This document shows, one piece after another, positions 23,865 through 53,682 of a DNA stretch of 64,000 nt. Source of the DNA: Bacillota bacterium (GTDB lineage: Bacteria; Bacillota; Limnochordia; DTU080); contig DULU01000066.1 in the NCBI GenBank assembly GCA_012840225.1, positions 45,226-109,225 on the forward strand, written 5' to 3'. The notes beneath the pieces are model-generated. The model made no database searches, had not been told where the DNA came from, and was given only the letters and a program-made list of their open reading frames with translations. The position numbers and the translations under genes are program-made. How positions within the stretch are numbered: the first letter of the stretch is position 1; each line of letters starts with the position of its first letter.

Positions 23865-23913
23865 GCGATGGAGTGGGGGAAAAAATCTTCATAAAGGAGT
23901 GAATGAACCAACA

Positions 23914-25542: not shown

Positions 25543-25693
25543 TTGATTGTCCGCGGCGGTGACACAAGGCGCAATATCGGTGCAGGGAATGCAGGTTGTC
25601 CACCGAAACATATTGCCGGGACGGTGCGGCGCAAAGATACCGGCGAGGCGAGGAGCGCTGCATCTGAAATATTTGGAAAAAGAAGGTAAGGGC

Positions 25694-29476: not shown

Positions 29477-29492
29477 TAAAAGGGGGATATGT

Positions 29493-35457: not shown

Positions 35458-35690
35458 AGCGATACTCCTCTTGCCAACGGGCGGACCGTCAACAAAAAAG
35501 ACCCGCTCCGTCGATGTAAATTTAGCAACGGAAGGGTCCCACAGGGCGCCGTTTTGGATGGGCGTTGCGGCTGTGGACAACGCGGCGGCACACCTGCTGC
35601 TTGTTTATTCCGACAAGCCCGGCTGCGGTAATGGTTACCCGCCTGCTCCAGATGCTATTATATTAACAACCGTTGTTATTGGTGTCAAGG
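35458..35690 (-). promoter_or_regulatory. Promoter plus ~190-nt structured leader for the CDF / ABC-exporter operon (candidate riboswitch)
   Basis: On the minus strand, TTGACA-17 bp-TAATAT gives a near-consensus sigma-70 promoter (top-strand 35659-35687). It is followed by a long GC-rich leader with several hairpins and a terminator-like stem with a U-run immediately before the RBS. Confidence 0.45.
35491..35540 (-). terminator. Leader attenuator (intrinsic terminator hairpin) directly upstream of the CDF start
   Basis: On the minus strand, GGGACCCTTCCGT…ACGGAGCGGGTC (a ~12-bp stem) is followed by TTTTTTGTT. It ends about 30 nt before the ATG. Confidence 0.5.
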
Positions 35691-36184: not shown

Positions 36185-37462
36185 ATGATAAAACGTCTAG
36201 TAGTCTTAATGCTGTTTTGTTCGGTGATTTTATCTGCTCACGGTGCAAGCGCGGCCACAAACACCCTGACTTTGATGCTTTATTCGGATGGCGACAAGAA
36301 ATACTTTGCTCCGAGTATAGAACGATTTGAGAGAGACCATCCCGGAGTGAAAGTTGATGTTATCATGGAATCGGCGAATTATCAAGAAAAAGTGTTGACC
36401 ATGGTAGCTACCGGTGTTGCCCCGGATGTGGTGACAGGTTCATCTGATGGAAACTTTCTTGAATGGCTGCTGGACGGGGTGGTTATCGATGTCGCCCCCT
36501 ATGTGGAGCGGGATGCGGCCTTTTTTAAGGACTGGATTCCGGAGTATCGCCTGCGTACATATTATAAAGGTCGTTCTTTTGGTGTAGCACACGTGCGTGC
36601 CGGTCTCTACCCCCTCTGGTTCAACAGGCGGCTCTTTGATGCTGCTGGTGTATCGTACCCGAATGGTGAATGGACTTGGGATGCTTTCTTGCAGGCAGCG
36701 AGCAAAATGAGCATTGACACCAACGGTGACGGGCAAAAGGACCAGTATGGTTGGCACCACGCCTGGAAGACGTGGGTCCCCTTCCTTTATAACGGTGGCG
36801 GCGGCATCCAAGATCCTAACGACCCCGGCAAAATACTGCTGGATTCTCAGGCTACCATCGAAGCGTTGGCCTTTCTGCAGGATATGGATTTCAAGTACGG
36901 CGCGTCGACTCCCAACCACAACTTCAACGGCAGTCGGGCCAATACGGCCTTCTTTAACGGCAAGGCGGCAATGATCATCAGGTCTGTCAGCCTATACGGC
37001 GGCGCGCCTGAACATATGAAAGATGGCCAAACCCTCGGATTGGCCCTGGCTCCCAAGGCGCCCAACGGCAAATCTCACACCATGATAACCATAGGCGCTT
37101 TCGGCATCACCAAGGCTTCCAAAAATAAGGAACTGGCTTGGGAGCTTATCAAGTATATGGTCGACGAGGAGTCGCAGCGCTACCACAAGGTGAATACCGG
37201 CTGCCTGACCACAAACCACAAGATCAACCAGGAGTATTTCCCAAGTGGTCTGCCGGTGTGGAACCACGACAAGGCGGTTTTGCAGATGGTGCAACTACCC
37301 ATGTTCACCGTAGACTACATGATGCCCACTTCGGCTATAACCATTATGGAGACCATGGTCAATGCCGTTGTCAACAAAAACGAGATGTCGCCCAGGATGG
37401 GTATTGAGGCTTATATGCCGCTAATAAAAGATGCCATGCAGGATTTTTTGGCGAAACTATAA
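36185..37462 (+). CDS. ABC transporter substrate-binding protein, family 1 (carbohydrate type); lower GC than neighbours
   Basis: Signal peptide MIKRLVVLMLFCSVILSAHGASAA, then …GVAPDVVTGS… and C-terminal SBP motifs. GGAGGT RBS 7 nt upstream of ATG 36185. GC is visibly lower (about 50%). Confidence 0.8.
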   Translation: MIKRLVVLMLFCSVILSAHGASAATNTLTLMLYSDGDKKYFAPSIERFERDHPGVKVDVIMESANYQEKVLTMVATGVAPDVVTGSSDGNFLEWLLDGVVIDVAPYVERDAAFFKDWIPEYRLRTYYKGRSFGVAHVRAGLYPLWFNRRLFDAAGVSYPNGEWTWDAFLQAASKMSIDTNGDGQKDQYGWHHAWKTWVPFLYNGGGGIQDPNDPGKILLDSQATIEALAFLQDMDFKYGASTPNHNFNGSRANTAFFNGKAAMIIRSVSLYGGAPEHMKDGQTLGLALAPKAPNGKSHTMITIGAFGITKASKNKELAWELIKYMVDEESQRYHKVNTGCLTTNHKINQEYFPSGLPVWNHDKAVLQMVQLPMFTVDYMMPTSAITIMETMVNAVVNKNEMSPRMGIEAYMPLIKDAMQDFLAKL

Positions 37463-37691
37463 GCTAAATGGCGGTTTTCACATAGATCATTTCCCTAGCT
37501 ATAGGAGGCGTCGCTGGAGGAAGCGCTTGGCTCTGCCGGGCGCTTCCGCCGTTGCGGGCCTCCATTTGTATGGGCTTCCATTTGTATGCGGTAGCGGTGC
37601 CCGGCAGGGGAGGATTTTCCATCTATAAAGCCAATAATAACGTAATTAACCAGATTGGCGATTATTATGGGTATTGTTGAGGATGGTGGTT

Positions 37692-38687
37692 ATGAGCGAG
37701 AAGGTGAATATAAGAAAGCTGGCCGAGTTGGCCGGAGTTTCCGTGGCTACGGTATCCAGGGTGTTGAACGGCAAGGCAGGCGTCAGCGAGAAGACGCGGC
37801 GCCAGGTGATCGAGTATATGCATGAGCTGAACTATCGCCCGCCGGTCATCCTCAACCGTGGTGAGACCATCGGTCTGGTGGTGTTTCCCAATATGGAAAT
37901 ATTCCTCACCGATTTCTTTGCCGATCTGTTGCAGGGCCTGACCGAGGAGACTTTCCGCCGCGGGCAGCAGCTGATGCTCATGCGCTTGAACACCGGGGAC
38001 CTGACCGAGGATATCATGGGTCACTACATGCGCTCACATGGACTGTGCGGTTACATCATTCTCGGAACCACCCTCACCACCCAGGAAGCCGAACAGCTGG
38101 CGAAAGTGGAAGTGCCCTATGTGGTCACGGGCGGTGCATACCTGCCTGAAAACATCAACTGGGTCGGCTATGATCACATCGGCGCCGGGCGGGATATGGC
38201 CCGTTATGTGCTGTCCTTGCGCCACCGGCACATCGCTGCCGTCGGCCGGACGGAGGGGCGTCCGGTCGGAGCCGCCCACCTGCAGGGCATCAACGAAGAG
38301 CTGGCCAAAAACGGCCTGGAACTTTGGGGAGGTGCGCCCGTCGCTCCCCACCCCAAGGAATGCCGGCGCCTGTTGGAGGAGAGTCAAGCCACCGGTAAAC
38401 CGACGACCATCATCGGGCTCTCCCAGGAGGACGGCTTGCTGATCGTCTCCGAGTTGACCAAGATGGGACTGCGCCTGCCTACCGACATCAGTGTGGCCGC
38501 CTTTGGCGATTACCATTCGATTCAGTGGGTGGAGCCCAAGCTGACCACCATGCGGGTACCCACCGGGGAAATCGGCAGCAAATCCATCAACCTGTTGCTG
38601 GATCTGGCTGCCGGCTGGAGCGAGCGGCCCGTGCGCCATCAGTTCTCGCCGCAGTTGGTGCTGAGGGATTCGGTGGGGGCCATATAG
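37692..38687 (+). CDS. LacI-family transcriptional regulator
   Basis: N-terminal HTH NIRKLAELAGVSVATVSRVLNG followed by a sugar-binding domain. ATG 37692; the track ORF starts at 37674. Confidence 0.85.
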   Translation: MSEKVNIRKLAELAGVSVATVSRVLNGKAGVSEKTRRQVIEYMHELNYRPPVILNRGETIGLVVFPNMEIFLTDFFADLLQGLTEETFRRGQQLMLMRLNTGDLTEDIMGHYMRSHGLCGYIILGTTLTTQEAEQLAKVEVPYVVTGGAYLPENINWVGYDHIGAGRDMARYVLSLRHRHIAAVGRTEGRPVGAAHLQGINEELAKNGLELWGGAPVAPHPKECRRLLEESQATGKPTTIIGLSQEDGLLIVSELTKMGLRLPTDISVAAFGDYHSIQWVEPKLTTMRVPTGEIGSKSINLLLDLAAGWSERPVRHQFSPQLVLRDSVGAI

Positions 38688-38690
38688 GTT

Positions 38691-39662
38691 ATGGAAATCG
38701 ACTGCTACAGTGCGAACGCCGAAGATTGCTGGGTAAGTCATCCGGAGGAATGGCAGCCGCTTTTTGTCAGGTGGGCGGCGGAACATCCCGAAGAGGCCGA
38801 GCTTCACGTCTGGCCGCAGCTTGGGGGCCGGAAGGTGGTCGGTTTGACCACCGGGAACAGAAGTGCCGGCCGGCGCTTGCTGGTGGCCGTACCTCACGCC
38901 CACGAGCCGGCGGGAACGGCGGTGGCTGTGGATCTGGCGGCCCAGCTTTTCACCGGGCGCCATCTTGACGGCACGCCCACCGCGCTGCCGGTGGAGGATA
39001 TTTTATCACATCTTTTGATCTCACTTCTGCCCGACACCAACTCCCAAGGCCGGTCCCAAAGCCCGGAGCGTTGCTGGGATGGCAAGGTGGATAATGAGCA
39101 ATTCCTCAAGATAGCTTTCGGGAAAGCTGCCGACGGCAGCCGCTTTGGCCGGTATCCCGAATGGCGGGCGAGCGAGCATCAGCCAGGTTTGATAGGGATC
39201 GAATACGAACAAGTAGACGACGATTTATTCGTGGAACCAAATACCAGCCGGCGTTCCACACACTATCGCGCCGTGACCGCCCTGCACGCTAAGTTCGGTT
39301 ATACTCATCATCTCGATATGCATCAACATGAAGCCGCTCCTGCCGCCCTGCTCCCGGCGGAATACGAAGAGCTGCCGGAAGGTGACCGGAGAGAAATCAT
39401 GACCTGGGCGGAGATGATCATTTCCGCCTGGACGCAAATTGGCGCCGATCCCCGGCCGGACCCGTATATTCCCTATAAAGGCCGGGACCGGCAACTGCTC
39501 TTCAAAGCTTTCTGGAAAGATGCCTGCCCCGGGATGCGGCGATTGACCACCGAAGTGCGCAACAACAGGGATCATAAAACGGGGGAGCCGGTCACCCTGC
39601 CTGAGCAATTTGCCATGGCGGAGGCGGCTTTGATGGGCACCATCAGGCATTTGCTGGGCTAA
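38691..39662 (+). CDS. M14-like zinc hydrolase (carboxypeptidase / succinylglutamate-desuccinylase-aspartoacylase-like)
   Basis: HxxE zinc motif in VAVPHAHEPAG and a second His in HHLDMHQHE, the same pattern as the N-domain of the 6514 gene. The start lies 4 nt after the LacI stop, so the two are likely co-transcribed. Confidence 0.5.
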   Translation: MEIDCYSANAEDCWVSHPEEWQPLFVRWAAEHPEEAELHVWPQLGGRKVVGLTTGNRSAGRRLLVAVPHAHEPAGTAVAVDLAAQLFTGRHLDGTPTALPVEDILSHLLISLLPDTNSQGRSQSPERCWDGKVDNEQFLKIAFGKAADGSRFGRYPEWRASEHQPGLIGIEYEQVDDDLFVEPNTSRRSTHYRAVTALHAKFGYTHHLDMHQHEAAPAALLPAEYEELPEGDRREIMTWAEMIISAWTQIGADPRPDPYIPYKGRDRQLLFKAFWKDACPGMRRLTTEVRNNRDHKTGEPVTLPEQFAMAEAALMGTIRHLLG

Positions 39663-39881
39663 AGCGGTATGTCTTGGGTTAGCGCCACCATTTTTATATA
39701 TCATCCAATATAGATAAGCCTAGATAAATAGGCCGCAAGAGGCCGGTATCATGAGCTTCCTTTCGCTCGGGCGCGACAATTGCCTGCGGGTCCCACAGGA
39801 TTTGTCTGCCCGATGCTAGAATAATTATATTAAGAAGTTGCGCAATCAGTTACGGTAAATTATTAGGCAGGTGTTATCCGG

Positions 39882-42323
39882 ATGCAATGTATGCACCACC
39901 ATGACCTGGGTGCGGCCTCTCTGGTGGGTCCGGTGCCCGTAAAGGCTGGTTCCATGGGTACCTGGACTATTATATATAAAGCTGGTCCGCTGGGTTTGGA
40001 ACAGGACGGCCGCGTGGGCGTTTCCTGGCTTTTTGCTTCCGACTGGGGCAGTCCGCAGACAGCGGAACCCACCGCTCCCAACTACCTCACCGCCCACTGC
40101 CGCGGCAGAGCGGGACTCGAAGTGCGCTTTGACCGCAAAGGCTACAGGAGACCTTGGTGGCCGCTGGTGTGGATCAGGGTGATTGACGGCTACCTCGAGC
40201 CCGGTGAGGAGATCGAAATCACCTTGGGCGACAGAACCGGCGGCTCGCCGGGGCAGAGGGCACCTGCGGTGGTCAACCCGCATGGGGCATTTAAAGTGCT
40301 GGTCGATTATGGCGGCACGGGAAGATGGGTGGAGCTCTCTCCGCATCTGCCTGTGCCGGTGGTGGCCGGGAAACTGGCCCGCCTCTCCATCCAGGTGCCG
40401 TCCCTGGTGCGCCCGGGGGAAAGATTCCAGGCTTTGCTGCGCCTGGAAGATGAGTTGGGCAATGTGGCCGGCGGCAAGGAAGTGGAGGTGGCGTGGTGGC
40501 TGGCGGCAGGCGCCGACCAGAGCCGGCTCCGCCCGCTGCCGGAGGCTGCTTGCGGAAACGGGAAGGGAAAATGGAAGGTGCTCATCCCGCCGGAAGGTCT
40601 CGTGCGCCTTGACGGTCTGGAGATCAGTGTTCCCGGCCTCTACCATTTCTGCGGCCGCTGCGCGGACGGCCTTGCCGCTGTGAGCAATCCGCTTTTGGTG
40701 ACTTCTGAGGGGGAGAGCATTCTCTGGGGCGACCTGCACAGCCAGTCCAGCGAGGCGCTGGGGCTCCGTCCGGCTGTGGAGCAGCTTGAAATCGCCCGCC
40801 ATATCTCCGGACTGGATTTCGCTTCCCTGCAGGGGAATGATTATGATATCAACAGCTCGGAATGGGCGGCCATCCGCAAGGCTGTGGCCGAGGCCAACCG
40901 GCCGGGTTGCTTCACCGCCTTCCTGGGCTATGAATGGTCGGGCAACACGCCGGGCGGCGGCGACCACAACGTGCTCTATGTGGACGACGATGGCGAACTG
41001 CTGCGCTCAGGCTTCTGGTGTACCCGGGAAGAGAAAAACCCGGGCAGCAATGACGGCGGGCACTCCGGCGAGCGCGCCAGCGAGCGCGCCGGCGGGCAAG
41101 TCGGCTGTGGGAGCTCGGGCGAGCGTGACAGCGGGCGCTCGTATTACCCCATTACTGAAGTATATAATCACCTGCCGCCGGGGCGGGCGATGCTCATACC
41201 CCATGTAGGCGGGCGTTATGCCAATTTTGCTTATCATCATCACGAGTTGGAACCGCTGATCGAAATCTGTTCCACCTGGGGTTATTTTGAATGGTTTATT
41301 TTTGAGGCCCTGGAGCGGCAGATGAAGGTCGGCTTCACCGGCGGCAGCGACGATCATAAAGGGCGTCCTGGACTATTGTCCTATGCCTCGGGGATATTCA
41401 GCGGGCCGGGGGGCCTGACGGCGGTGAGGGGGGGAGAATGCACCAGGGAGTCTCTCTGGCAGGCCCTGTCCCGGCGGCGCTGTTATGCTACCACCGGCAC
41501 CCGCCTCATCATGGATGTAGAGGTGGCGGGAGGCGAGATGGGTTCATGTGTAAAGAGTTCCTCACCGGTGACGGTGCACTGCCGGGTGGTGGGCACGGCG
41601 CCCATTGAACGCCTGGAGCTGCGCCGGGGGAAGGAACTGGTTGCGGTCTACCGGCCCGATCCTGCCGGCCCGACCACAAGCCCAGCCACCGGCTCGACCA
41701 CCGGCCCGACTGCCGGCCGGCGCTGGCTGAGGCTCTCCTTCGCCGGCATCAGGCCGAAGAAAAGATACGCCGCTTTAAAATGGCCGGTAAACTTGAAGCT
41801 TAATGGGTGTGCAGAGCCGGAGGCTTGGCTCATCGGGAAAGACATAAAAGTGAGCCGCTGCCCGGATGGGGTCGGGGGCGGGAGCACGGACGGGAGAGGC
41901 TGTATGAGCGGTAGCAGCAGCGCGGCCGGCGGGGCGAACCAGGATGGCCGCAAGAGTTATGAGCTCTTCGCCTATACCGTGGGTATCGAGCGCAGCCTGT
42001 GGATCCCCCTTCTCGGGGAGGAAGCGTCGCTGGAGTTCAGCACGCCCTTCATCAACCTGACCTGGCCGTCCGGGGAGGGGGCCGGGGCGGAGAAGGAGCC
42101 GAATGCCTGGCCTGCACCGGTTCGTTCATTTATATATGAAAACGGGATATGGGCGGAGGTGAACGCCTCGTGCTGGTCGGGGCTGCCACAGGCTGTAGCT
42201 CTTGAAGCGACCTGGAGCGACCCGGCTCCTCCGGGCGAGCATGCTTACTGGGTGAAAGCGGTGCAGGTAGACGGGCACTTGGCCGTCGCCAGTCCGGTTT
42301 ATGTGCAGATAGATCCGAGTTAG
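39882..42323 (+). CDS. DUF3604-family protein (PHP-like metal-dependent hydrolase fold), 813 aa
   Basis: WGDLHSQSS, DHNVLYVDD, PHVGGRYANFAYHHH, GGSDDHKG and CYATTGTR motifs are shared with the paralog at 43742. There is an internal low-complexity insertion (GERASERAGG…SGERDSGRS). Confidence 0.6.
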   Translation: MQCMHHHDLGAASLVGPVPVKAGSMGTWTIIYKAGPLGLEQDGRVGVSWLFASDWGSPQTAEPTAPNYLTAHCRGRAGLEVRFDRKGYRRPWWPLVWIRVIDGYLEPGEEIEITLGDRTGGSPGQRAPAVVNPHGAFKVLVDYGGTGRWVELSPHLPVPVVAGKLARLSIQVPSLVRPGERFQALLRLEDELGNVAGGKEVEVAWWLAAGADQSRLRPLPEAACGNGKGKWKVLIPPEGLVRLDGLEISVPGLYHFCGRCADGLAAVSNPLLVTSEGESILWGDLHSQSSEALGLRPAVEQLEIARHISGLDFASLQGNDYDINSSEWAAIRKAVAEANRPGCFTAFLGYEWSGNTPGGGDHNVLYVDDDGELLRSGFWCTREEKNPGSNDGGHSGERASERAGGQVGCGSSGERDSGRSYYPITEVYNHLPPGRAMLIPHVGGRYANFAYHHHELEPLIEICSTWGYFEWFIFEALERQMKVGFTGGSDDHKGRPGLLSYASGIFSGPGGLTAVRGGECTRESLWQALSRRRCYATTGTRLIMDVEVAGGEMGSCVKSSSPVTVHCRVVGTAPIERLELRRGKELVAVYRPDPAGPTTSPATGSTTGPTAGRRWLRLSFAGIRPKKRYAALKWPVNLKLNGCAEPEAWLIGKDIKVSRCPDGVGGGSTDGRGCMSGSSSAAGGANQDGRKSYELFAYTVGIERSLWIPLLGEEASLEFSTPFINLTWPSGEGAGAEKEPNAWPAPVRSFIYENGIWAEVNASCWSGLPQAVALEATWSDPAPPGEHAYWVKAVQVDGHLAVASPVYVQIDPS

Positions 42324-43606
42324 CGAAGCAGTGGCAAGCCGGTGTAGACCGGACCGGGATCGTCCAGGATGCCTCCGGAGGCTTCATAAAACTCCTGATC
42401 CAGGTGAAAAGTCCCACGTTCGGGCCACAGCCAAGATGCTCCCGCTCTTGGGTGGGAGGACGCCACGAGCGCCGGCCAATCGGGGTAACTTTCCGGTCCG
42501 TTGGCTTCCATCAGTCCGCCTTTGATGCCGGGGAAAGGAGGCAGGTGGGCGGCAAAGATCTTGTTCCAGTCCACCAGGAACGGCACGCAGGCATTATCCG
42601 CCACATAGCAGGCCATCCGGTGGCGAGCGGCGGCAGAAGCCATCTCGAAGGCCACCGTCATGGTTTTCCCTGCCGGCTTGATGGCTATGGCGCTATAGCC
42701 CTGCGCGGCTTTGTGGGCGACGGCGGCGGCATCGTGCAGGCTTTCGTCGGCGGCGATCCTCACGGGCAGATCGCTGACATCGATCTCCAGCTCTTCGCCG
42801 AAAGGTTCTTCCAGAATGACGATGCGCTCCAGAGCCCCGATGGCCCCGGCATGGTCCAGGAGGCGAACGATGCTCTCTTTATGGCGGTAGCGACCGTTGG
42901 CATCGAGGTAATATAAAACCTGACCGCTCTCGGTCAACGGTGTGGCGTAGGCTTTGGCCACCTGATGCACCTCGCTCAGGCGGGCCATATCTTTGGCCAG
43001 CATCTCTTCTTCGCTGCCCGGTTGGCCGATCTTGATCTTGAGCAGGCCGGCTCCGTTTTGCAGGAGGCTTTCCACGGTGGATAGAGGCAAATGGTAGGTG
43101 ACGAGCGGTACGGCCACCAATTGCTTCTGGCGATGACATAATGCCGGCCGCACCGCCGCCGGGATCAGGTCGGTGAAACTTTTACCGCCCCGCAGGCGGG
43201 CATAAAGCACCCAGGCGGCGTTGTCCAAGGCTACCAGGGCATTGAGCGTAAAGGTGGGGCGGAGGGCGGGTCGTCCGGTGATCAGCCGGCCATAGCCATG
43301 CACTTCGTCTTTGACGGTGGCAAGCAACTCGGGCGGGTCGGCAAATTCCCGGCCTTCCGCCAGCTTCAGCGCCTTTTCCAGGAGGCAGAGCATGATCAGG
43401 TTGCCGCCGGCCTCGCTGTGAGCGGTGAAGACGGCCTCATCGGACCAGAGGACGGCCAGGCCGCCCAAGCCGAAAGCCTCATGGCCGCCGGCTTCTTCCA
43501 GGCGCACCACCGCATTCCATTTTTCCCGGAAGAAAGAGCCTTTGAAGCCGAAGGGGCGGGCAAAGGGCTCCCGCTGGATGTCAAAAAGAGCGCGTTTTAT
43601 TTTCAC
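42320..43606 (-). CDS. Enolase-superfamily enzyme (MR/MLE type; dipeptide-epimerase/racemase-like)
   Basis: Motifs LKIKIG (KxK), LYYLDANG, ILEEPF, RIAADES and IAIKPAGK match the MR/MLE metal-ligand and catalytic-Lys pattern. GTG start with an AAAGGAGG RBS 7 nt upstream. Confidence 0.7.
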   Translation of the reverse strand: MKIKRALFDIQREPFARPFGFKGSFFREKWNAVVRLEEAGGHEAFGLGGLAVLWSDEAVFTAHSEAGGNLIMLCLLEKALKLAEGREFADPPELLATVKDEVHGYGRLITGRPALRPTFTLNALVALDNAAWVLYARLRGGKSFTDLIPAAVRPALCHRQKQLVAVPLVTYHLPLSTVESLLQNGAGLLKIKIGQPGSEEEMLAKDMARLSEVHQVAKAYATPLTESGQVLYYLDANGRYRHKESIVRLLDHAGAIGALERIVILEEPFGEELEIDVSDLPVRIAADESLHDAAAVAHKAAQGYSAIAIKPAGKTMTVAFEMASAAARHRMACYVADNACVPFLVDWNKIFAAHLPPFPGIKGGLMEANGPESYPDWPALVASSHPRAGASWLWPERGTFHLDQEFYEASGGILDDPGPVYTGLPLLR

Positions 43607-43741
43607 CGGTCTGCCTCCTTTAGTCGCCTAAATCACGTCTTCTATTATGCCTGCTTTCGGCGGGTATTTCCACCGCCGGCAGGAATGGCGCAGGTGGCGG
43701 CGAGAAGAAGGAACAAGCCGGAAAGGGAAGCGAGACCGGAA

Positions 43742-45313
43742 ATGTTGAAGGACAAACTGATTTGGGCGGATTTGCACAATCACAATGAAATAGGATATGG
43801 CCGGGGCAGTCTGGAGCGGGCGGCGCGCCTGGCCCGGGAGCGGCTGGATATCTGGGCTTTCACCGCGCATGGCGCTTGGCCCGACTTGCCGCAAAACCCT
43901 GAGGACCCGGCGGTGCGGAAGCACCTGGCCGGCTTCGCCAAGGTGCGTGAAAACTGGCCGCTGGTGCTGCGGTCGCTGGAGGCGGCCACGCAGCCGGGGC
44001 GCTTCATCGCTTTGGCCGGTTTCGAATGGCACTCCAGTAAATACGGCGATCGTCATGTGCTGGCACCAGTGTCGCCGCTGCAGTTGCCAGGGATAGATAT
44101 ACCCCTGACCGAACTGAAGGCCTGGGCAGAGGCCCATGAGGCGCTGCTCATTCCTCATCACCTGGCATATCCGCCGGCATCGAGAGCCGTCGACTGGGCG
44201 ACGGTCGATGAGCGCCTGTCGCCGGTGGCGGAGATCTTCTCCGAACACGGCTGCAGCGAAGCCGACGACGCTCCCTGGCCGATGGACGGCCACAGCATGA
44301 GCCCGCGCAGCACGGTCAACTGCTGGCGCACAGCGCTGGATCGCGGGCTGCACCTTGGCGCCGTCGCTTCCACCGACAATCATGAAGGCTGCCCGGGAGC
44401 GTATAACGAAGGGCTGACCGGCCTCTGGGTGGAAAATTTCAGCGTGGCGGGGCTCTTTGCCGCCTTGCGCCGTCGCCGGACCTTTGCCGTCACCGGAGAT
44501 CGCCTGGTCCTGGACTGGTCCTGTCTGGAGGTGCCGATGGGGGAGACGGTGTCTTTGAGCGGTCGGGCTGCCGGCGGAGCAGGCGGCCTCCAGGTGCCGC
44601 TCCGGTTTTGGGTGGCGGGCCGGGATGCCATAGACTGCATCGATCTGATCTGCAACGGGCGGCTTTGGCGGCGCTGGACCCCCGGCGTGGATGTGCCGGA
44701 GGACGACGGCGGGCCAGGGCCGGAGTTCGCCTGCGGCAAGAGCGGCGGGAAGGAGATCTGGTTGGTGAGAGGCCGGTGGGGCTGGGGCCGCATGGGGAAT
44801 ACGGCGGTGAACCACTGGAAGGCCGAGCTGAAAGTGGCGGGCGGCGAGGTGCTCAAGGTGGAGCCGGGGTTCGGCAGCGTGCCGCCGGAAGGCGGAGCCG
44901 ACGGCACTTGCATCTGGTCCGGTGGGCCGGAGCTCTCCTGGTCTTCCCGCACCAGCCGGGCATACCCCCAGTGCTATGACCAACTGCTCCTGGAAGTGGC
45001 CGGAGACGACCGCACCCGCCTGGAACTGGAAGTGGAGTGCCGCCTGGACGAGAAGGTGTGGCGGCGCAGGGCCATATGCTCATTGGGCGAGCTGAGGCAG
45101 CATTCCTGCGAGGTGGCCATGGACGAGCCGCCGCTCACGCCCCGCTTCCAGTGGGCCAGGGCTTTGCCTGCCGCTCTTTGTACAGTGGCGGTGACGGAGC
45201 AGGTCGTATTGTCGGGCGAGGTGGCCTCTAAAGCGGAGAGTTATATATATATTCGGGTGCGCCAGCGCAACGGCCAGATGGCCTGGTCTTCTCCCATATG
45301 GCTGAAGCCGTGA
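43742..45313 (+). CDS. DUF3604-family protein (PHP-like), paralog of the 39882 gene
   Basis: IWADLHNHNEIGYGRGS, LAGFEWHSS, IPHHLAYPP, STDNHEG and FAVTGDR motifs. ATG 43742 was chosen because the track ORF from 43298 would overlap the enolase gene by about 300 nt. The start is uncertain (alternative ATG 43686). Confidence 0.6.
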   Translation: MLKDKLIWADLHNHNEIGYGRGSLERAARLARERLDIWAFTAHGAWPDLPQNPEDPAVRKHLAGFAKVRENWPLVLRSLEAATQPGRFIALAGFEWHSSKYGDRHVLAPVSPLQLPGIDIPLTELKAWAEAHEALLIPHHLAYPPASRAVDWATVDERLSPVAEIFSEHGCSEADDAPWPMDGHSMSPRSTVNCWRTALDRGLHLGAVASTDNHEGCPGAYNEGLTGLWVENFSVAGLFAALRRRRTFAVTGDRLVLDWSCLEVPMGETVSLSGRAAGGAGGLQVPLRFWVAGRDAIDCIDLICNGRLWRRWTPGVDVPEDDGGPGPEFACGKSGGKEIWLVRGRWGWGRMGNTAVNHWKAELKVAGGEVLKVEPGFGSVPPEGGADGTCIWSGGPELSWSSRTSRAYPQCYDQLLLEVAGDDRTRLELEVECRLDEKVWRRRAICSLGELRQHSCEVAMDEPPLTPRFQWARALPAALCTVAVTEQVVLSGEVASKAESYIYIRVRQRNGQMAWSSPIWLKP

Positions 45314-45341
45314 GAATGATAAGGAAAGAAGTGACCGACTG

Positions 45342-46403
45342 ATGAGAAAGGTGCGGTTTGCCGTTGTCGGGTTGGGTACCATCGGCCGGGTGCATATCAG
45401 CGCCGTGCAAAAAGCCCCTGCGGCGGAGTTGGTCGCCGTAGTCGATGCTGATGCCGCCCGGGCCGAGAGCATGGGGAAAGAGTTGGGTGTACCTTGGTAT
45501 ACGGCGGTGGAAGAGTTGGTGGCCAGGGAAAAAATCGATGTGGTCAACATTTGCACGCCGAGTGGCCTGCACCTGGAGCCGGCGCTGGCGGCCGTAAAGG
45601 GCGGCTGCCATGTCCTGGTGGAGAAACCGCTGGAGGTGACCGTCGAGCGCTGCGACCAAATCATTAGGGCCTGTCGCCGGGCGGGAGTGAAGCTCGGGGC
45701 CATCTTTCAGAACCGCCTATTCGACGCCAACCGGATGGTCTGGGAGGCGGTGCGGCAGCAGCGCTTCGGGCGTCTGATCCTGGGCGTGGTCAATCTGAAA
45801 TGGTGGCGCTCGCAGGATTATTACGATGCGGGTGCCTGGCGGGGGACCTGGGCCATCGACGGCGGCGGAGCGGTGATGAATCAGGGCATACACCGCATCG
45901 ACCTCTTGCAATGGCTGTTCGGCGAGGTGGAGTCGGTTTATGCTCACGCCGCCTGCCTGGCTCATGAAAGGATCGAGGTGGAAGACACCGCCGTTGCCGT
46001 CTTGCGTTTCAAAAGCGGGGCGGTGGGCTCGGTCATCGCTTCCACGGCCGCCTACCCCGGCTTTCCGGCCAGGCTGGAAGTGCACGGTGATCAGGGTGGG
46101 ACCGTCGTGGAGGACAACAAAATAATCGCCTGGCACGGCCAGGATATCTCCCCGGAGGAAGAGGCGCAGGTGCTGGGCCAATTTGCCGGGGAGAAGCGGG
46201 CCGGCGCCATGGCCGATCCGGCCATGCTTTCCCATATCGGTCATGAACGGCAGATCGCCGATATGGCCCTGGCGGTGCTGGAAGACAGGGAACCTATGGT
46301 AACCGGTCTGGAAGCGAGGAAATCGGTAGCCATCATCGAAGCTATATATGCTTCCGCCCGGAGCGGGCAGCCGGTGGCGGTGTCCATACCGGAGTTGATG
46401 TGA
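45342..46403 (+). CDS. Gfo/Idh/MocA-family oxidoreductase
   Basis: MRKVRFAVVGLGTIG…LVEKPLE. Confidence 0.85.
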   Translation: MRKVRFAVVGLGTIGRVHISAVQKAPAAELVAVVDADAARAESMGKELGVPWYTAVEELVAREKIDVVNICTPSGLHLEPALAAVKGGCHVLVEKPLEVTVERCDQIIRACRRAGVKLGAIFQNRLFDANRMVWEAVRQQRFGRLILGVVNLKWWRSQDYYDAGAWRGTWAIDGGGAVMNQGIHRIDLLQWLFGEVESVYAHAACLAHERIEVEDTAVAVLRFKSGAVGSVIASTAAYPGFPARLEVHGDQGGTVVEDNKIIAWHGQDISPEEEAQVLGQFAGEKRAGAMADPAMLSHIGHERQIADMALAVLEDREPMVTGLEARKSVAIIEAIYASARSGQPVAVSIPELM

Positions 46404-46481
46404 CGGCGCCGGCGTTTAGGCATTGTCCCCGGCGGTCCAGGTGGGTTAATATACAGTTATCATTATTAAGAGGTGAGTAAC

Positions 46482-47768
46482 ATGAGGTATGATAAATCCC
46501 TGGAATTATTTGACAAAGCGTTGCAACTGATTCCGGCCGGCAGTCAGACTTCCAGCAAGCGCCCGCAGGCCTTTGCCTATGGCGCCTATCCCATTTATGC
46601 CAAGCGGGCGGACGGTTGCCGGATTGAGGATATCGACGGGAATGTATACATAGATTTTGTAAATGCGCTGGGTCCGATAGTTTTGGGTTACAACTACCCG
46701 GCGGTGCAGGAAGCTATTGCCGCTCAGCTGGAAAAAGGGATTATTTCCGGGTTGCTCTGGCCGGCGGAAGTGGAGGCCGCCGAGTTACTCACCAAAATGA
46801 TTCCGTGCGCCGAAATGGTCCGCTATTTCAAAGGCGGAGGCGAAGCCACTTCTGCCGCCGCCAGGCTGGTGCGGGCCTACACCGGGCGGGAAGTCATTTT
46901 AAACAGCGGCTATCGCGGCTGGCCCGATGTGTGGGCGGCGGCGAGAAACGAGCCCGGGGTGCCCAGTTGTCTCTCCTCCACCCTCGTCACCTTCCCCTTC
47001 GGCAATCTGGAGGCGCTGGAGCAGAAACTGGAAGAACATAAAGGAAAAGTGGCGGCGGTCTTCCTCGACATCACGAGCGGCAGCGAGGCGACGAGCGCCT
47101 ATCTCCAGGCGGCTAAAGAACTGGCTCACAAGCATGGCGCCCTGTTCTGCATGGACGAGATCGTCACCGGCTTCCGCCTTGCTCCCGGCGGCGCGCAGGA
47201 ATATTTCGGCGTCACTCCCGACTTGGCGGTTTTTGCCAAAGGCATAGCCAACGGGATGCCGGTGAGCTGTGTCGCCGGTCGCCGGGATGTGATGCAGAAA
47301 ATGGCTGGTCTCACCATCTCCATCACCTATGGTGGCGAGGCACTCTCCCTGGCGGCGGCGGTGGCCACCATGCGGGAGATCAAGGAGAAAAAGGTCACGG
47401 ATTATCTCTGGCAGATCGGCCGGCGGCTGATGGACGGCTTGAACCGGGCGGCGGCCAATAGCGGGATCCCCTTCACCTGCCTTGGCTTGGCGCCTATGTC
47501 CATGATGAAGTTCAGCGAAGTGAGCGCCGCCGACAATCAAATGGTATGGAGCTATTTCCTTCAGGAGATGGCGGCCCGCGGCGTGCTCATGCGCCGGGGC
47601 GGACTGAATTTTGTCACTTACAGCCACACCGAGGCGGATATCGATCAAGTGGTGGCGGCGGCCGCAGATGTGTTTGCCGGCATGAAAGAGGTCTGGAACA
47701 CCCCGCTTTTGGCCCAGCGGGTGAAAGTCAGGGAAGTGAATGTGGGCCATCGCAGCTTTAGCTCATAG
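46482..47768 (+). CDS. Class-III PLP aminotransferase (glutamate-1-semialdehyde aminomutase-like)
   Basis: YIDFVNALGPIVLGYNYPAVQEAIAAQLEKG and DEIVTGFRLAPGGAQEYFGVTPDLAVFAKGIANG (PLP Lys) match HemL-type enzymes. AAGAGGTG RBS. The track starts at GTG 46473. Confidence 0.85.
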   Translation: MRYDKSLELFDKALQLIPAGSQTSSKRPQAFAYGAYPIYAKRADGCRIEDIDGNVYIDFVNALGPIVLGYNYPAVQEAIAAQLEKGIISGLLWPAEVEAAELLTKMIPCAEMVRYFKGGGEATSAAARLVRAYTGREVILNSGYRGWPDVWAAARNEPGVPSCLSSTLVTFPFGNLEALEQKLEEHKGKVAAVFLDITSGSEATSAYLQAAKELAHKHGALFCMDEIVTGFRLAPGGAQEYFGVTPDLAVFAKGIANGMPVSCVAGRRDVMQKMAGLTISITYGGEALSLAAAVATMREIKEKKVTDYLWQIGRRLMDGLNRAAANSGIPFTCLGLAPMSMMKFSEVSAADNQMVWSYFLQEMAARGVLMRRGGLNFVTYSHTEADIDQVVAAAADVFAGMKEVWNTPLLAQRVKVREVNVGHRSFSS

Positions 47769-47797
47769 CGGTGCCGGGCGGCGAAGCCGGCTGGAGG

Positions 47798-47846
47798 CTC
47801 CGGAGCTGGAGCTTGAATTCTCCAGGCTCCGGGGCCGCTTTTTTCT
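47798..47846 (+). terminator. Rho-independent terminator after the aminotransferase gene
   Basis: CCGGAGCTGGAG…CTCCAGGCTCCGG is an imperfect ~12-bp stem, followed by GGCCGC and then TTTTTT. Confidence 0.5.
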
Positions 47847-47972: not shown

Positions 47973-48917
47973 ATGGTGGGGACCGGTGGCTGCGATGTTT
48001 TGGGATTGGGCTGCGTGGCTGTGGACGATCTGTTTTTTGTGGACCGCTACCCGGCGCCTGATGAAAAAGTGATGGTCAGGGAGAGATACCGGCAATGCGG
48101 CGGTTTGACGGCCACCGCTTTGGTGACTGCCGCCAGGTTGGGCGCTTCCTGCGCCTATGCCGGCATGCTGGGGGAAAATGAATTATCTGCCTTTGTCCGC
48201 AACACGTTGGAAAAAGAGGGCATCGATACCAGTCGAGTGGTGCCGGTGAAAGAGGCGGCTCCCATCCATGCCATTGTCATCGTGGATATTAAGGCGCGGA
48301 CCCGCACCATTATCAACTGCCCGCCTCCCGTCACCGGGGCGCACCCGGAGTTGCCGCCAGCCGAGGTGATAGAGCACACCAAAGTGCTGCTGGTGGACCA
48401 TTGGGGCGCCGCCGGCATGTTGAGGGCGGCCGGGGTGGCCAAAGCTGCCGGTATTCCCGTGGTAGCCGATTTCGAATTGACGGGCATCGATTGGGTGGCC
48501 CCGGTAATGCCGCTGGTGGATCATCTCATTGTGCCGGAATCCTTTGCGCTGCGGTATACCGGCGAGAGCGACGCCCGAGCTGCGGCGATGGCGCTGGTGC
48601 AGCCAGGGAGGAAGACGGTGATCGTCACCCAAGGGGCGAGAGGCGGCGTTTATGTGGATGCCGCAGCGTCTCGTCCCGTGGTGCAGACCTATGGCATCTA
48701 CCCGGTTGAGGTCGTGGATACCACCGGTTGCGGCGACGTTTTCCATGGGGCTTATTGCATGGCGCTGGTGAAAGGCTGGCCGCTCGAGGAGCGGGTGCGT
48801 TTCGCTTCAGCCGTCGCCGCCCTGAAGGCTACCAAACCGGGAGGCCAAGCCGGCATCCCGCGGGTCGACGAAGTGTTTCACTTTATGAAGACCAACCGAC
48901 CGGTTGATTACAGATAA
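47973..48917 (+). CDS. PfkB-family (ribokinase-like) carbohydrate kinase
   Basis: VLGLGCVAVDDLFFV, the GG dipeptide (RYRQCGGLTATA) and the C-terminal DTTGCGDVFHGAY catalytic motif. GGAAGGGAA RBS. Confidence 0.85.
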   Translation: MVGTGGCDVLGLGCVAVDDLFFVDRYPAPDEKVMVRERYRQCGGLTATALVTAARLGASCAYAGMLGENELSAFVRNTLEKEGIDTSRVVPVKEAAPIHAIVIVDIKARTRTIINCPPPVTGAHPELPPAEVIEHTKVLLVDHWGAAGMLRAAGVAKAAGIPVVADFELTGIDWVAPVMPLVDHLIVPESFALRYTGESDARAAAMALVQPGRKTVIVTQGARGGVYVDAAASRPVVQTYGIYPVEVVDTTGCGDVFHGAYCMALVKGWPLEERVRFASAVAALKATKPGGQAGIPRVDEVFHFMKTNRPVDYR

Positions 48918-50243: not shown

Positions 50244-50288
50244 CGGGTTATGATAAATGATAAATTGGATTCAAGGAGATTTGCCTGT

Positions 50289-51955: not shown

Positions 51956-53340
<1,385 letters not shown>

Positions 53341-53344
<4 letters not shown>

Positions 53345-53640
53345 TTGGACGCTCCTTCACTGCGGCCTTTGAACATCAGCAGCATGCGGTCTGTTACCAT
53401 AAACCCGCCGACTAAATTGATGGTAGCCAGAACTACTGCCAAAAAGCCGATAATTTGCAAAACCAGGGTGTCGGCCGGTGCCGTTATCAGCAGGGCGCCC
53501 ACGATGGCGATGCCGGAGATGGCGTTGGCTCCCGACATCAGCGGTGTGTGCAGGATGGGCGGCACTTTGCTGATCACTTCAAACCCGGCGAATGCGGACA
53601 GGACGAAGATATAAATGCCGAATAACAGCTCGCCCGGCAT
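53341..53640 (-). CDS. pntAB: NAD(P) transhydrogenase subunit alpha part 2 (membrane)
   Basis: About 100-aa membrane protein MPGELLFGIYIFVLSAF…LMSGANAISGIAIVGALL. A GAGGGAGG RBS lies 7 nt upstream of ATG 53640. The track start at 53682 is rejected. Confidence 0.8.
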
Positions 53641-53682
53641 GCGAAAACCTCCCTCGATATATTTTCTCCCCAGGTGGACCAC

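Follow-up and report, generated by a model that had tools for sequence, protein, structure and literature searches.

The kanosamine pathway NtdABC of Bacillus subtilis comprises a GFO-family enzyme (NtdC), an aminotransferase (NtdA), and a phosphatase (NtdB). In this pathway, as in the aminocyclitol/rhizopine (moc/iol) pairs, the hydroxyl, keto, and amino groups of a sugar or cyclitol are interconverted by a GFO-family dehydrogenase acting together with a hydrolase and a PLP aminotransferase. The mpaA-ycjG module of Escherichia coli combines an M14C amidase with an L-Ala-D/L-Glu epimerase. The Salmonella D-glucosaminate pathway (DgaE ammonia-lyase, DgaF aldolase) is described as converting an amino-sugar-derived 2-amino-aldonate to a 2-keto-3-deoxy acid sugar (PMC9529869), and the carbaryl hydrolases CehA/McbA as cleaving carbamate esters (PMC8292978; PMC5141477); the latter activity indicates that the PHP-like branch is able to hydrolyze non-phosphoester bonds. 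In the heparin/heparan-sulfate (HS) polysaccharide utilization locus (PUL) of Bacteroides thetaiotaomicron (BT4652-BT4663), BT4655 is flanked by the S1_11 sulfatase BT4656 and the kinase BT4654, and deletion of BT4655 leaves GlcNS in the medium; the published accounts describe it as not being a formylglycine sulfatase, term it a novel, uncharacterized sulfatase family, and regard it, on this genetic support, as a putative GlcNS de-N-sulfatase (PMC10154612; PMC9067506; PMC11980591).

The locus analyzed here lies in a window of 64 kb (the whole stretch of DNA under analysis), and the closest relatives of its genes are from Limnochordia. The span consists of five separately transcribed units within a large sugar-utilization island of an uncultured Limnochordia-like Firmicute, with a PfkB-RLP unit next to it. 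Every gene was found where the preliminary description had placed it, and the gene order and family assignments given there stand, as does the terminator between the aminotransferase and the kinase-RLP unit:

36185-37462 (ORF from 36170), plus strand: CUT1-type sugar ABC SBP (PF01547 111 bits, PF13416 85 bits); unit 1
37561-37588: exact direct repeat, two copies of TCCATTTGTATG (37561-72 and 37577-88) with a 16-nt period
37635-37648: near-palindrome TAATAACGTAATTA with CG at its center; LacI ATG 44 nt downstream
37692-38687 (ORF from 37674), plus strand: LacI-family repressor (PF00356 60 bits, PF13377 78 bits); unit 2
38691-39662, plus strand: M14-fold zinc hydrolase whose family has no Pfam model; unit 2
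39882-42323, plus strand: DUF3604 subfamily A protein (DUF3604A), 813 aa (PF12228 60 bits), monocistronic; unit 3
42320-43606, minus strand: enolase-superfamily enzyme, MLE subgroup, 428 aa (MR_MLE_C 26 bits, below the 29.4 cut-off); unit 4
43607-43741: putative divergent promoter region of the enolase gene and the DUF3604B operon, read from sequence
43742-45313, plus strand: DUF3604 subfamily B protein (DUF3604B), 523 aa (PF12228 31 bits), first gene of a three-gene operon; unit 5
45342-46403, plus strand: GFO/IDH/MocA NAD(P)-dependent sugar dehydrogenase (PF01408, PF22725); unit 5
46482-47768, plus strand: class-III (GSAM-like) PLP aminotransferase (PF00202 161 bits); unit 5
47796-47844, plus strand: intrinsic terminator, 16-bp hairpin at 47796-47836 followed by T6
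47973-48917, plus strand: PfkB-family sugar kinase (PF00294 140 bits); downstream unit
48939-50243, plus strand: RuBisCO-like protein, RLP (PF00016 150 bits); downstream unit

Each of the five units has its own promoter-like site and gaps, and the terminator folds at -49.9 kcal/mol for 96 nt (z = -2.8; T6 at 39-44). Scores against more specific models fell under the cut-offs for PfkB (ribokinase, 124 vs. 300 bits), RLP (MtnW-type, 344 vs. 409), the aminotransferase (PRK06209, 283 vs. 486), GFO (IolG, 168 vs. 355), and LacI (RbsR, its best NCBIfam match, 129 vs. 382). The SBP (called gene, 425 aa) has a signal peptide and no adjoining permease genes. SBP genes number five in the window as a whole, GFO genes at least seven, and LacI genes two; the same stretch encodes a PL6 lyase resembling chondroitinase B and has a weak match to glucuronyl C5-epimerase. 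A tblastn search with two sulfatase sequences detected no S1 sulfatase in the 64 kb.

The locus had been called LacI-controlled, which is interpretation rather than observation; no operator-like motif shared between its transcription units was found, so control of the whole locus by LacI is putative. The direct repeat had been offered as a possible LacI operator. It is exact and unique in the window, where it is the sole 12-mer recurring within 40 nt, but 30 of 200 Markov-simulated windows (15%) also have a 12-mer repeated at that distance. As the best candidate for a LacI-type operator the sequence suggests TAATAACGTAATTA, present in one copy in the window and absent upstream of the remaining units, with a role in autoregulation. 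In the enolase/DUF3604B intergenic region, a promoter-like site lies on the minus strand at 43672-43644, and no palindrome common to 43607-43741 and other units was found.

The M14-like gene begins 3 nt past the LacI stop, and the two are probably co-transcribed. Its product has no sequence match in Pfam, NCBIfam, or PDB. The zinc hydrolase proposed from its HAHE…DMH signature is borne out: an M14 fold is predicted, the motifs PHAHEP and LDMHQHE are invariant in 24 homologues (of 98 found), and the zinc ligands and catalytic Glu are kept, with H69, E72, H211, and E288, as well as R121, invariant. The AlphaFold (AF2) model (pLDDT 96.3) resembles M14 carboxypeptidases, with carboxypeptidase D/A2 as the best Foldseek matches (E 1e-11, TM 0.55-0.62).

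Both DUF3604 proteins match the PF12228 HMM, as proposed; they are not close paralogues, however, being only 23% identical over ~325 residues, which places them in different subfamilies. Nor do they share the motifs DLHxH, DHN, and GGSDDH that had been ascribed to both: DLHxH occurs in DUF3604B (DLHNH) and is DLHSQ in DUF3604A, and DUF3604A has GGDHN and GGSDDH where DUF3604B has GDRHV and STDNH. DUF3604A opens with a beta-rich N-terminal region and closes with a beta domain at the C-terminus; between them is a variant PHP domain (DLHSQS, EWS, GGDHN, PHVGGR, SDDH; HxQ is conserved across the subfamily). The last 4 nt of its gene also belong to the enolase gene, and its subfamily numbers 479 representative clusters at E<=1e-30. 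DUF3604B has a PHP fold with the full PHP-type His/Asp/Glu metal-ligand set, followed by C-terminal beta-sandwich domains. The metal-binding residues are kept in the M14-like protein and DUF3604B; DUF3604A has lost three His positions that are invariant in DUF3604B. Classification of the enolase-type protein (>2600 homologues), which the preliminary description had called for, places it in the MLE subgroup: the KxK/D/E/D/K set is complete and invariant (K190-x-K192, D235, E266/E267, D287, K310), and its best solved relatives in a profile search are the dipeptide epimerases TM0006 (2zad, 4e-7) and YcjG (1jpd, 5e-6).

Judged by gene order in other genomes, the locus is a patchwork, with a conserved core of DUF3604B and GFO that is sometimes adjoined by the MLE-type enolase gene; it is not the one conserved unit that the preliminary description had made a condition of its reading. 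Elsewhere among bacteria and archaea, the usual neighbors of this core are genes for S1 sulfatases, sugar kinases, and CUT1 sugar ABC transporters. A DUF3604B homologue stands directly upstream of the enolase homologue in 10 of 80 loci overall (8 of the 50 metagenome loci with enough upstream flank), and five of these ten also have a sulfatase. Among 11 loci chosen via DUF3604B, an S1 sulfatase occurs within 10 kb in eight, a GFO gene in five, and a sugar kinase in four. The Limnochordia MAG L144 encodes the enolase (62% identity), DUF3604B (50%), and a sulfatase; L149 encodes AP_endonuc_2, DUF3604B (50%), AP_endonuc_2, GFO, sulfatase, ceramidase-like, DegT aminotransferase, and M55 proteins, its GFO being a 55% identical orthologue of the window GFO two genes from the DUF3604B orthologue. 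The closest enolase homologue (64%, L145) has no DUF3604B nearby. Farther afield are loci in Marinovum (GFO-like dehydrogenase, DUF3604B, MalEFGK, KDG kinase, arylsulfatase), Roseateles (two GFO genes and glucokinase, divergent from GntR, DUF3604B, SBP, permeases, and sulfatase), and Halomicrobium (three GFO genes, DUF3604, sulfatase). No orthologue of the aminotransferase was found in any DUF3604B or enolase locus, the sole aminotransferase being the non-orthologous DegT of L149. The recurrence of DUF3604B-GFO and DUF3604B-enolase pairs across phyla indicates that at least units 4 and 5 are functionally connected.

A full-length DUF3604B homologue appears to occupy the BT4655 position of the Bacteroides heparin/HS PUL, judging by gene order and reviews. 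In the HS PUL of Bacteroides finegoldii (SusC, SusD, DUF4995, HepC, sulfatase, DUF3604, ROK, MFS, DUF4962), the DUF3604 protein scores above the cut-off for PF12228, and its alignment with the window DUF3604B is full-length (28% identity, E 1e-60), at an identity where substrate specificity may differ. On this comparative evidence, a sulfamate would be at least as indicated as an acyl or peptide group for the N-substituent removed. The best reading of the locus, a tentative one, is that it serves to break down, in the cytoplasm, an amino sugar with an N-substituent, possibly N-sulfate, by a chemistry that we infer. An SBP-dependent system would import the N-substituted, most plausibly N-sulfated, amino sugar, and DUF3604B would cleave the N-substituent to release the amine. 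From here, purely by chemical inference, an amino-aldonate route would follow: oxidation of the sugar at C1 by GFO would yield a 2-amino-aldonate, a D-configured alpha-amino acid; the MLE-type enzyme would take the alpha-proton beside the new carboxylate, leading to 2-epimerization or dehydration/deamination; the class-III aminotransferase would convert the amine to a 2-keto acid; and PfkB kinase and RLP would process the keto-acid sugar further. The amine had earlier been thought to be freed by the M14 deacylase, a step for which the comparative evidence favors DUF3604B. The general scheme of the preliminary description, in which an amine is freed and amine, keto, and hydroxyl groups of a sugar are then interconverted, is still the most economical reading of DUF3604B-GFO-aminotransferase. 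Several points count against the pathway: the enolase-DUF3604B linkage occurs in a minority of loci and is absent around the closest enolase homologue, the aminotransferase has no orthologue in the DUF3604B and enolase loci, and the two sulfatase queries detected no S1 sulfatase in the window.

It is doubtful that the locus represents no single pathway, that is, unrelated cassettes with separate substrates that became chance neighbors in a gene-dense island of orphan SBPs, GFOs, and hydrolases. The individual promoter-like sites and gaps, the missing common operator motif, and the abundance of SBP, GFO, and LacI genes in the window agree with such an origin, as does the want of conserved linkage between the rest of the locus and the M14-like gene, DUF3604A, the aminotransferase, or RLP; DUF3604A has its own conserved context elsewhere, usually including a GntR gene, and normally follows the three genes of an ABC importer, which encode a binding protein, a permease, and an ATPase. 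The pairs recurring across phyla speak against it. Alternatively, the M14-like enzyme might be the entry deacylase or peptide remover for an amino sugar or polyol that is N-acylated or bears a peptide, with the enolase as a YcjG-like partner and the DUF3604 proteins as auxiliary hydrolases. Its intact fold and catalytic residues, its proximity to LacI, and the dipeptide epimerases matched by the enolase profile would fit, as would several neighborhoods: an AstE/AspA-like (M14-related) gene follows the DUF3604B homologue in L152, peptidase-like genes (M55, beta-lactamase, Asp/Glu racemase) lie near DUF3604B in L149 and L150, the M14-like homologue of Limnochordia L010 directly follows a class-III aminotransferase gene, and a second M14-domain gene of the window (6484-17541 region) lies beside SBP, GFO, and kinase genes. 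We nevertheless consider this unlikely: in 58 genomes, no DUF3604, enolase-type, RLP, or other locus gene stood beside the M14-like homologue, nor was any neighbor gene conserved; none of the 80 enolase-homologue loci had an M14-like gene; in a Limnochordia MAG, one contig carries the M14-like gene (L010) and another the pair of enolase and DUF3604B genes (L144); MpaA is missing among the best 50 Foldseek matches; and the similarity to YcjG is remote (profile, E 5e-6). The mpaA/ycjG-like module of the preliminary description is thus without comparative support. By the same comparison, two genes are lineage-specific additions, the M14-like one and that of DUF3604A, and conservation ties neither to the proposed chemistry.

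An NtdABC-like logic on sugar phosphates is distinctly unlikely. PfkB would phosphorylate, GFO would oxidize a secondary hydroxyl, the aminotransferase would exchange keto and amino groups, and DUF3604B would dephosphorylate as a phosphoesterase, in the synthesis or breakdown of a kanosamine-like amino sugar. The established B. subtilis pathway is a precedent, and GFO, aminotransferase, and phosphoesterase-fold hydrolase share one operon here with PfkB next to it. Characterized PHP-fold members are mostly phosphoesterases (HisK, RNase AM, EndoQ), and those structurally closest to DUF3604B are phosphoesterases and nucleases, so the fold would suit a phosphatase just as well; in L148, moreover, DUF3604B lies near PfkB, HAD, and SIS genes. 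However, Tat or signal peptides are found on many DUF3604B homologues, whose genes neighbor those of periplasmic sulfatases in PULs; this speaks against the family acting on sugar phosphates in the cytoplasm. Also against this reading, eight of 11 independent loci have sulfatases, and the 250-residue C-terminal beta-sandwich region is atypical among small-molecule phosphatases. Highly improbable is oxidative (3-keto) glycoside cleavage analogous to the levoglucosan and BT2157-2159-type pathways, in which GFO would oxidize an imported oligosaccharide to a 3-keto-glycoside and one of the two DUF3604 proteins would act as hydrolase/eliminase on this activated intermediate. In its favor, the GFO weakly matches levoglucosan dehydrogenase and the BT_2158/BT_2159 glycoside 3-dehydrogenase models, and in L149, L150, and L152 DUF3604B is flanked by genes of AP_endonuc_2, a TIM barrel like that of xylose isomerase. 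Against it, the window locus has no AP_endonuc_2 or DUF1080 gene; the GFO scores are far under the cut-offs of those models (99 vs. 650, and 25-28 vs. 650-750); and the aminotransferase and enolase-type enzyme would be left without a role.

Among known systems, E. coli mpaA-ycjG resembles the window in that an M14-fold hydrolase and an MLE enzyme lie within 4 kb of each other and the latter has YcjG among its top profile matches, but the window pair is in separate transcription units on opposite strands, its homologues are never together in the 58 + 80 loci, and its M14-like protein matches no M14 sequence model. NtdABC and moc/iol have the same set of GFO-family dehydrogenase, PLP aminotransferase, and hydrolase, although the window aminotransferase is class III (GSAM-like) rather than DegT and its hydrolase PHP-fold rather than HAD; no orthology to the window genes was detected (IolG 168 bits vs. 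a cut-off of 355). CehA/McbA (NCBIfam NF038032) are the only named, characterized relatives that sequence comparison detected for DUF3604A and DUF3604B (67 and 39 bits, both under the 80-bit cut-off), and differ in domain architecture and genomic context. The Salmonella D-glucosaminate pathway passes through the same kind of intermediate as we propose for the window, but relies on a PTS and a PLP-dependent lyase acting on the 6-phosphate, without an enolase-superfamily enzyme, GFO, or PHP hydrolase. Unlike the Bacteroides PUL, the window has no SusC/D, no detected S1 sulfatase, and no lyase inside the locus; its DUF3604B has no Tat signal, and is thus expected to be cytoplasmic, and is coupled to GFO, aminotransferase, and enolase-type enzymes that are all absent from the PUL. 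The activity of BT4655 is known, in the account of PMC10154612, from the deletion phenotype alone. Common to the window and the Bacteroides PUL are a sugar kinase, a sugar transporter, and a PF12228 protein sharing the invariant PHP residues of DUF3604B, which in the syntenic B. finegoldii PUL lies between an S1 sulfatase and the ROK kinase.

Every gene named in the preliminary description was recovered at its place and in its order, and gene spacing and orientation indicate five transcription units at the locus. The genes are listed below, where SBP denotes a sugar ABC substrate-binding protein, GFO a GFO/IDH/MocA dehydrogenase, and DUF3604A and DUF3604B the two DUF3604 proteins, which belong to different PF12228 subfamilies (A and B).

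36185-37462, plus strand, SBP, a unit of its own
37692-38687, plus strand, LacI regulator, ending 3 nt before the M14-like gene
38691-39662, plus strand, M14-like protein (323 aa), same unit as LacI
39882-42323, plus strand, DUF3604A (813 aa), lone unit after a 219-nt gap
42320-43606, minus strand, enolase-superfamily protein, lone unit
43742-45313, plus strand, DUF3604B (523 aa), in an operon with GFO and the aminotransferase
45342-46403, plus strand, GFO, after a 28-nt gap from DUF3604B
46482-47768, plus strand, class-III aminotransferase, after a gap of ~78 nt from GFO
47796-47836, terminator hairpin followed by T6, closing the DUF3604B-GFO-aminotransferase operon
47973-48917, plus strand, PfkB kinase
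48939-50243, plus strand, RuBisCO-like protein (RLP)

The 3' end of the DUF3604A gene overlaps the convergent enolase-type gene by 4 nt, and the latter is divergent from the DUF3604B operon across 135 nt. The same contig is present in biogas-fermenter and JGI metagenomes, and Limnochordia MAGs are the source of the closest homologues for several of the locus genes.

The locus had been described as LacI-controlled, with a direct repeat as the possible operator. The repeat (two copies of TCCATTTGTATG) is real; within the window it is confined to the SBP-LacI spacer, and comparable repeats arise in 15% of simulated windows, making it only mildly unexpected. A CG-centered near-palindrome, TAATAACGTAATTA (37635-37648), present as a single copy directly upstream of lacI, appears to be the better candidate for a LacI-type site. 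Scanning six intergenic regions revealed no palindrome or 12-mer common to them, and neither a copy of TAATAACGTAATTA nor a shared motif was found upstream of the SBP, DUF3604A, enolase-type, or DUF3604B units. Because no motif is common to these upstream regions, control of the entire locus by LacI is unproven. Between the cation-efflux and SBP genes, a perfect odd-length palindrome (TAACAAC-C-GTTGTTA; ~35664-35678) overlaps a promoter-like site of the minus strand and likely serves another regulator as its operator. No Rfam families were detected across the window.

Both DUF3604 proteins pass the PF12228 gathering threshold of 20.4 bits (DUF3604A, 60.3 bits; DUF3604B, 31.1 bits), confirming their family assignment, and share 23% identity over the PHP core. 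DUF3604B has the complete PHP trinuclear-metal set (HxH, E, H, H, DxH), with ligands H12, H14, E95, H97, H139/H140, H169, D212, and H214 all invariant. Many DUF3604B homologues carry Tat or signal peptides; the window protein has none. A PDB search with the DUF3604B single sequence gave no match, and profiles of DUF3604B and DUF3604A gave nothing meaningful.

Across 11 loci picked solely through DUF3604B homology, an S1 sulfatase is encoded within 10 kb in eight, a GFO in five, and a sugar kinase in four; unlike those eight, the 64-kb window has no S1 sulfatase that we could find. One locus (L149) encodes AP_endonuc_2, DUF3604B (50% identity), AP_endonuc_2, GFO (55% identical to the window GFO), sulfatase, a ceramidase-like protein, DegT aminotransferase, and M55; its ceramidase-like gene adjoins the sulfatase gene that follows DUF3604B and GFO. 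Marinovum algicola encodes a GFO-like dehydrogenase, DUF3604B, MalEFGK, KDG kinase, and arylsulfatase; this GFO-DUF3604B cassette is directly preceded by two sulfonate-catabolism genes, for sulfoacetaldehyde acetyltransferase and phosphate acetyltransferase (pMaD8, 1095-5011). In Roseateles, two GFO genes and a glucokinase gene are divergent from genes for GntR, DUF3604B, SBP, permeases, and sulfatase, and the archaeon Halomicrobium encodes three GFO, DUF3604, and sulfatase.

The most informative of the DUF3604B-homologue loci is that of Bacteroides finegoldii, which encodes SusC, SusD, DUF4995, HepC, S1 sulfatase, DUF3604 (annotated as 'Tat pathway signal sequence'), ROK, MFS, and DUF4962. 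The DUF3604 protein scores above the PF12228 threshold, and its alignment with the window DUF3604B is full-length (28% identity, E 1e-60), with conservation of the ligand residues. The gene order mirrors that of the B. thetaiotaomicron heparin/HS PUL: BT4656 (S1_11 sulfatase), BT4655, BT4654 (kinase), BT4653 (transporter), and BT4652 (lyase) (PMC9067506). From this synteny, we infer that the B. finegoldii DUF3604 gene corresponds to BT4655; in Bacteroides HS PULs, the product encoded at that position is homologous to the window DUF3604B. BT4655 has been termed 'a novel sulfatase family' and lies outside the formylglycine sulfatases; it is a putative, biochemically uncharacterized GlcNS de-N-sulfatase, an assignment based on its deletion phenotype, a growth defect that scales with N-sulfation and GlcNS remaining in the medium (PMC10154612, PMC9067506, PMC11980591). 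Literature searches on DUF3604, and on the PHP fold together with sulfatases or PULs, returned nothing relevant. We know of no activity demonstrated for a member of DUF3604 proper; its closest named relatives are the CehA/McbA carbaryl hydrolases.

The subfamily of DUF3604A is a distinct and large one, with 479 representative clusters at E<=1e-30, and it conserves WGDLHGQS (HxQ), EWS, GGDHN, PHVGGR, and SDDH. DUF3604A departs from the standard PHP ligand set in having HxQ (Q288 invariant), EWS (S353 invariant), and an H/W-variable residue at the SxHG position, and retains D361-H, H441, and D490/D491-H492; the site is a maintained variant, not a degenerate one. The PHP-like motifs ascribed to both DUF3604 proteins in the preliminary description are not common to the two: DLHxH occurs in DUF3604B only (DLHNH, with DLHSQ in DUF3604A), and GGDHN and GGSDDH occur in DUF3604A (GDRHV and STDNH in DUF3604B). 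A low-complexity Gly/Ser/Glu/Arg-rich insert of ~45 residues (residues ~380-430) within the PHP domain of DUF3604A is absent from all 23 aligned homologues. In their usual context, DUF3604A-type genes form a conserved operon, directly following the three genes of an ABC importer (binding protein, permease, ATPase), as in a metagenome contig (L154), Klebsiella plasmids (L164), and Rhizobium etli (L165). A GntR regulator gene precedes the importer in the Klebsiella and R. etli records; no regulator was identified on the metagenome contig. The binding protein of the metagenome contig has NMT1/OpuAC-type Pfam matches, resembling sulfonate/nitrate/taurine-type binding proteins; for the Klebsiella and Rhizobium transporters, the annotation is generic only. 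TauE or SfnB genes occur near DUF3604A homologues in three cases, and no other gene of the window locus was found beside DUF3604A homologues elsewhere. The importer context and these sulfur-metabolism neighbors offer a lead to a second DUF3604 function.

The enolase-type protein can be placed in the MLE subgroup: K190-x-K192, D235, E266/E267, D287, and K310 are invariant, and this K/K/D/E/D/K set is the signature of that subgroup. In an HMM alignment, the strand-2 KxK motif, the D/E/D metal ligands of strands 3-5, and the strand-6 Lys align to residues of TM0006 (2zad), a dipeptide epimerase whose deposited name is 'muconate cycloisomerase'. As to a role as an L-Ala-D/L-Glu (dipeptide) epimerase, profile searches retrieved TM0006 at 4e-7 and Escherichia coli YcjG at 5e-6, both remote; the MR_MLE_C score (26.2 bits) is below the Pfam gathering cut-off (29.4 bits), no NCBIfam equivalog was found, and a single-sequence PDB search gave no match. 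The family has >2600 matches. Neighbors in 80 metagenome enolase loci include GFO (13), TctC-type carboxylate transporters (11), PhyH dioxygenases (10), DUF3604B homologues (10), sulfatases (6), Zn-ADH (6), and AGE-like epimerases (5), and the frequency of these TTT transporters fits a carboxylate substrate. A DUF3604B homologue is immediately upstream and co-directional in 8 of the 50 enolase loci with enough flanking sequence; a Limnochordia locus (L144) has the order enolase (62% identity), DUF3604B (50%), sulfatase. A Subdoligranulum record with DUF3604B-like and enolase-like genes was set aside, the two being 40 kb apart in an unannotated record.

The M14-like protein has no Pfam (E<=1e-3), NCBIfam, or PDB (single-sequence search) match; the PF00246 model does not match it, and a precomputed PF00246 match exists for only 6 of its 98 homologues. 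These homologues (33-66% identity) are distributed among Limnochordia, Armatimonadota (including cultured Fervidibacter sacchari), Poribacteria, Chloroflexota, Planctomycetota, and some archaea; a search against plasmids gave no match. The original M14-like call proved right. The HxxE zinc ligands, third His ligand, and catalytic Glu of peptidase M14 are all present (H69-x-x-E72, H211, and E288, invariant together with R121 in 24 aligned sequences), and the AF2 model (pLDDT 96.3) has the carboxypeptidase alpha/beta fold, matching CPD, CPA2, and a B. cenocepacia carboxypeptidase in Foldseek (probability 1.0, TM 0.55-0.62) at 11-17% identity. Invariant zinc and catalytic residues together with this match identify an M14-fold enzyme whose active site is intact.

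The M14-like and enolase-type genes had been likened to the E. coli mpaA/ycjG murein-peptide module of an M14 amidase and an enolase-type epimerase. Their adjacency is not conserved: the pair occurs in none of 58 M14-like genome loci and none of 80 enolase loci, and we reject the comparison. No DUF3604, enolase-type, or RLP gene lies beside an M14-like homologue in those 58 loci, nor does any neighbor family hold a fixed position among them; one Limnochordia MAG carries the M14-like gene (L010) on one contig and the enolase-DUF3604B pair (L144) on another. That the likeness dissolves when homologous loci are compared is a caution for neighborhood inference. Five of the 58 M14-like homologues have a ceramidase-like gene within 10 kb.

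The remaining enzymes are clear family members that fall below every NCBIfam equivalog cut-off: GFO (IolG model, 168 vs. 355 bits), the aminotransferase (HemL/GSAM models, 260-283 vs. 486-527 bits), PfkB (ribokinase model, 124 vs. 300 bits), and RLP (MtnW enolase model, 344 vs. 409 bits). RLP retains the KDDE motif, with IKPC replacing the RuBisCO KPK motif; a class-I lysyl-tRNA synthetase gene begins 6 nt past its stop codon (48939-51848), and this spacing suggests that the two are probably co-transcribed. The literature on RLP paired with pfkB yielded nothing informative. Downstream of the locus, the sugar cassette ends at the housekeeping genes PntB and PntA (NAD(P) transhydrogenase; 51956-54840, minus strand), which are unrelated to it.

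The surrounding sugar island encodes five SBPs, at least seven GFO, two LacI, and one ROK protein, as well as DegT, GH3, beta-lactamase-fold, and second M14-domain proteins and the following:

19256-21592, PL6 chondroitinase-B-like lyase
23899-25542, weak glucuronyl C5-epimerase-like protein
25547-26902, neutral-ceramidase-like amidase

The five SBPs are CUT1-type (9540-10844, plus; 22073-23371, minus; 29400-30746, plus; 36185-37462, plus; 59635-60870, plus). No ABC permease or ATPase genes adjoin them in the window; a common transporter encoded elsewhere may serve them, or they may act in sensing. At 6484-17541, the genes after that of the second M14-domain protein (973 aa, PF00246 50 bits) encode SBP, three GFO, 2-hydroxyacid dehydrogenase, FGGY kinase, and another GFO, an 'M14 + SBP + GFO + kinase' layout that parallels the studied locus; this M14 protein (6484-9405) was rejected as a relative of the M14-like protein, having no sequence similarity to it.

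A composite amino-sugar pathway can be proposed, in which DUF3604B would release the amine from an N-substituted hexosamine, with sulfamate favored as the N-substituent because of the BT4655 link. GFO would oxidize the freed sugar, if at C1 yielding a 2-amino-aldonate (a D-alpha-amino acid); the MLE-type enzyme would work on the alpha-carbon of the new carboxylate; the aminotransferase would generate a 2-keto-aldonate; and PfkB and RLP would process this product. The scheme would keep the original idea of freeing an amine and then interconverting functional groups, and would replace the M14-like deacylase with DUF3604B as entry enzyme and favor a different leaving group. We regard it as tentative, somewhat short of probable, and its N-sulfated version specifically as perhaps unlikely. 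Linkage of DUF3604B to GFO, sulfatase, and enolase genes recurs across phyla; against the scheme, the window has no detected sulfatase, identity between the window DUF3604B and the Bacteroides protein is low, the DUF3604B-enolase linkage is found in a minority of loci only, and no DUF3604 protein is known to have a measured activity.

M14-initiated deacylation, as first proposed, draws on a few anecdotal neighbors: in L152, DUF3604B is followed by an AstE/AspA-like gene; in L010, an aminotransferase gene adjoins the M14-like gene; and L149 and L150 have peptidase-like genes. An NtdABC-like sugar-phosphate scheme would make DUF3604B a phosphatase, and a 3-keto-glycoside scheme is a further rival. 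A null view treats the units as independent cassettes. Recurrent linkage is seen for DUF3604B with GFO, sulfatase, and enolase genes; neither the M14-like gene nor DUF3604A, the aminotransferase, or RLP has conserved linkage to the rest of the locus.

Homology and genomic context connect one DUF3604 subfamily with sulfated-sugar cassettes from at least six phyla, and with the missing non-formylglycine GlcNS N-sulfatase gene named in gut-glycosaminoglycan reviews. These ties give DUF3604 a functional lead, testable by concrete, cheap biochemistry. The subfamily also pairs repeatedly with GFO and, in some lineages, with a large, uncharacterized MLE-type enolase family (>2600 members), for which the locus likewise yields a lead; the partner enzymes could define desulfated amino-sugar use outside the classical NagA/NagB route. 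A broader reading, judged improbable, is that DUF3604 constitutes a new class of PHP-fold metal-dependent sulfohydrolases, separate from the formylglycine sulfatases. N-sulfated-hexosamine sulfamidases would make up subfamily B, from Bacteroides PULs to haloarchaea and Limnochordia, and subfamily A (HxQ) would act on a small compound delivered by the adjacent ABC importer, possibly organosulfur in view of the TauE/SfnB neighbors. The locus would then encode a new cytoplasmic route from hexosamine to 2-amino-aldonate, its C2 epimer (by a new MLE-type enzyme), and 2-keto-aldonate, which would be phosphorylated and handled by the RuBisCO-like protein.

As a single locus, the region is less coherent than the preliminary description supposed. 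Catabolic islands of this LacI/SBP type are known, but this one is built from enzyme families without assigned function, whose combination matches no described pathway.
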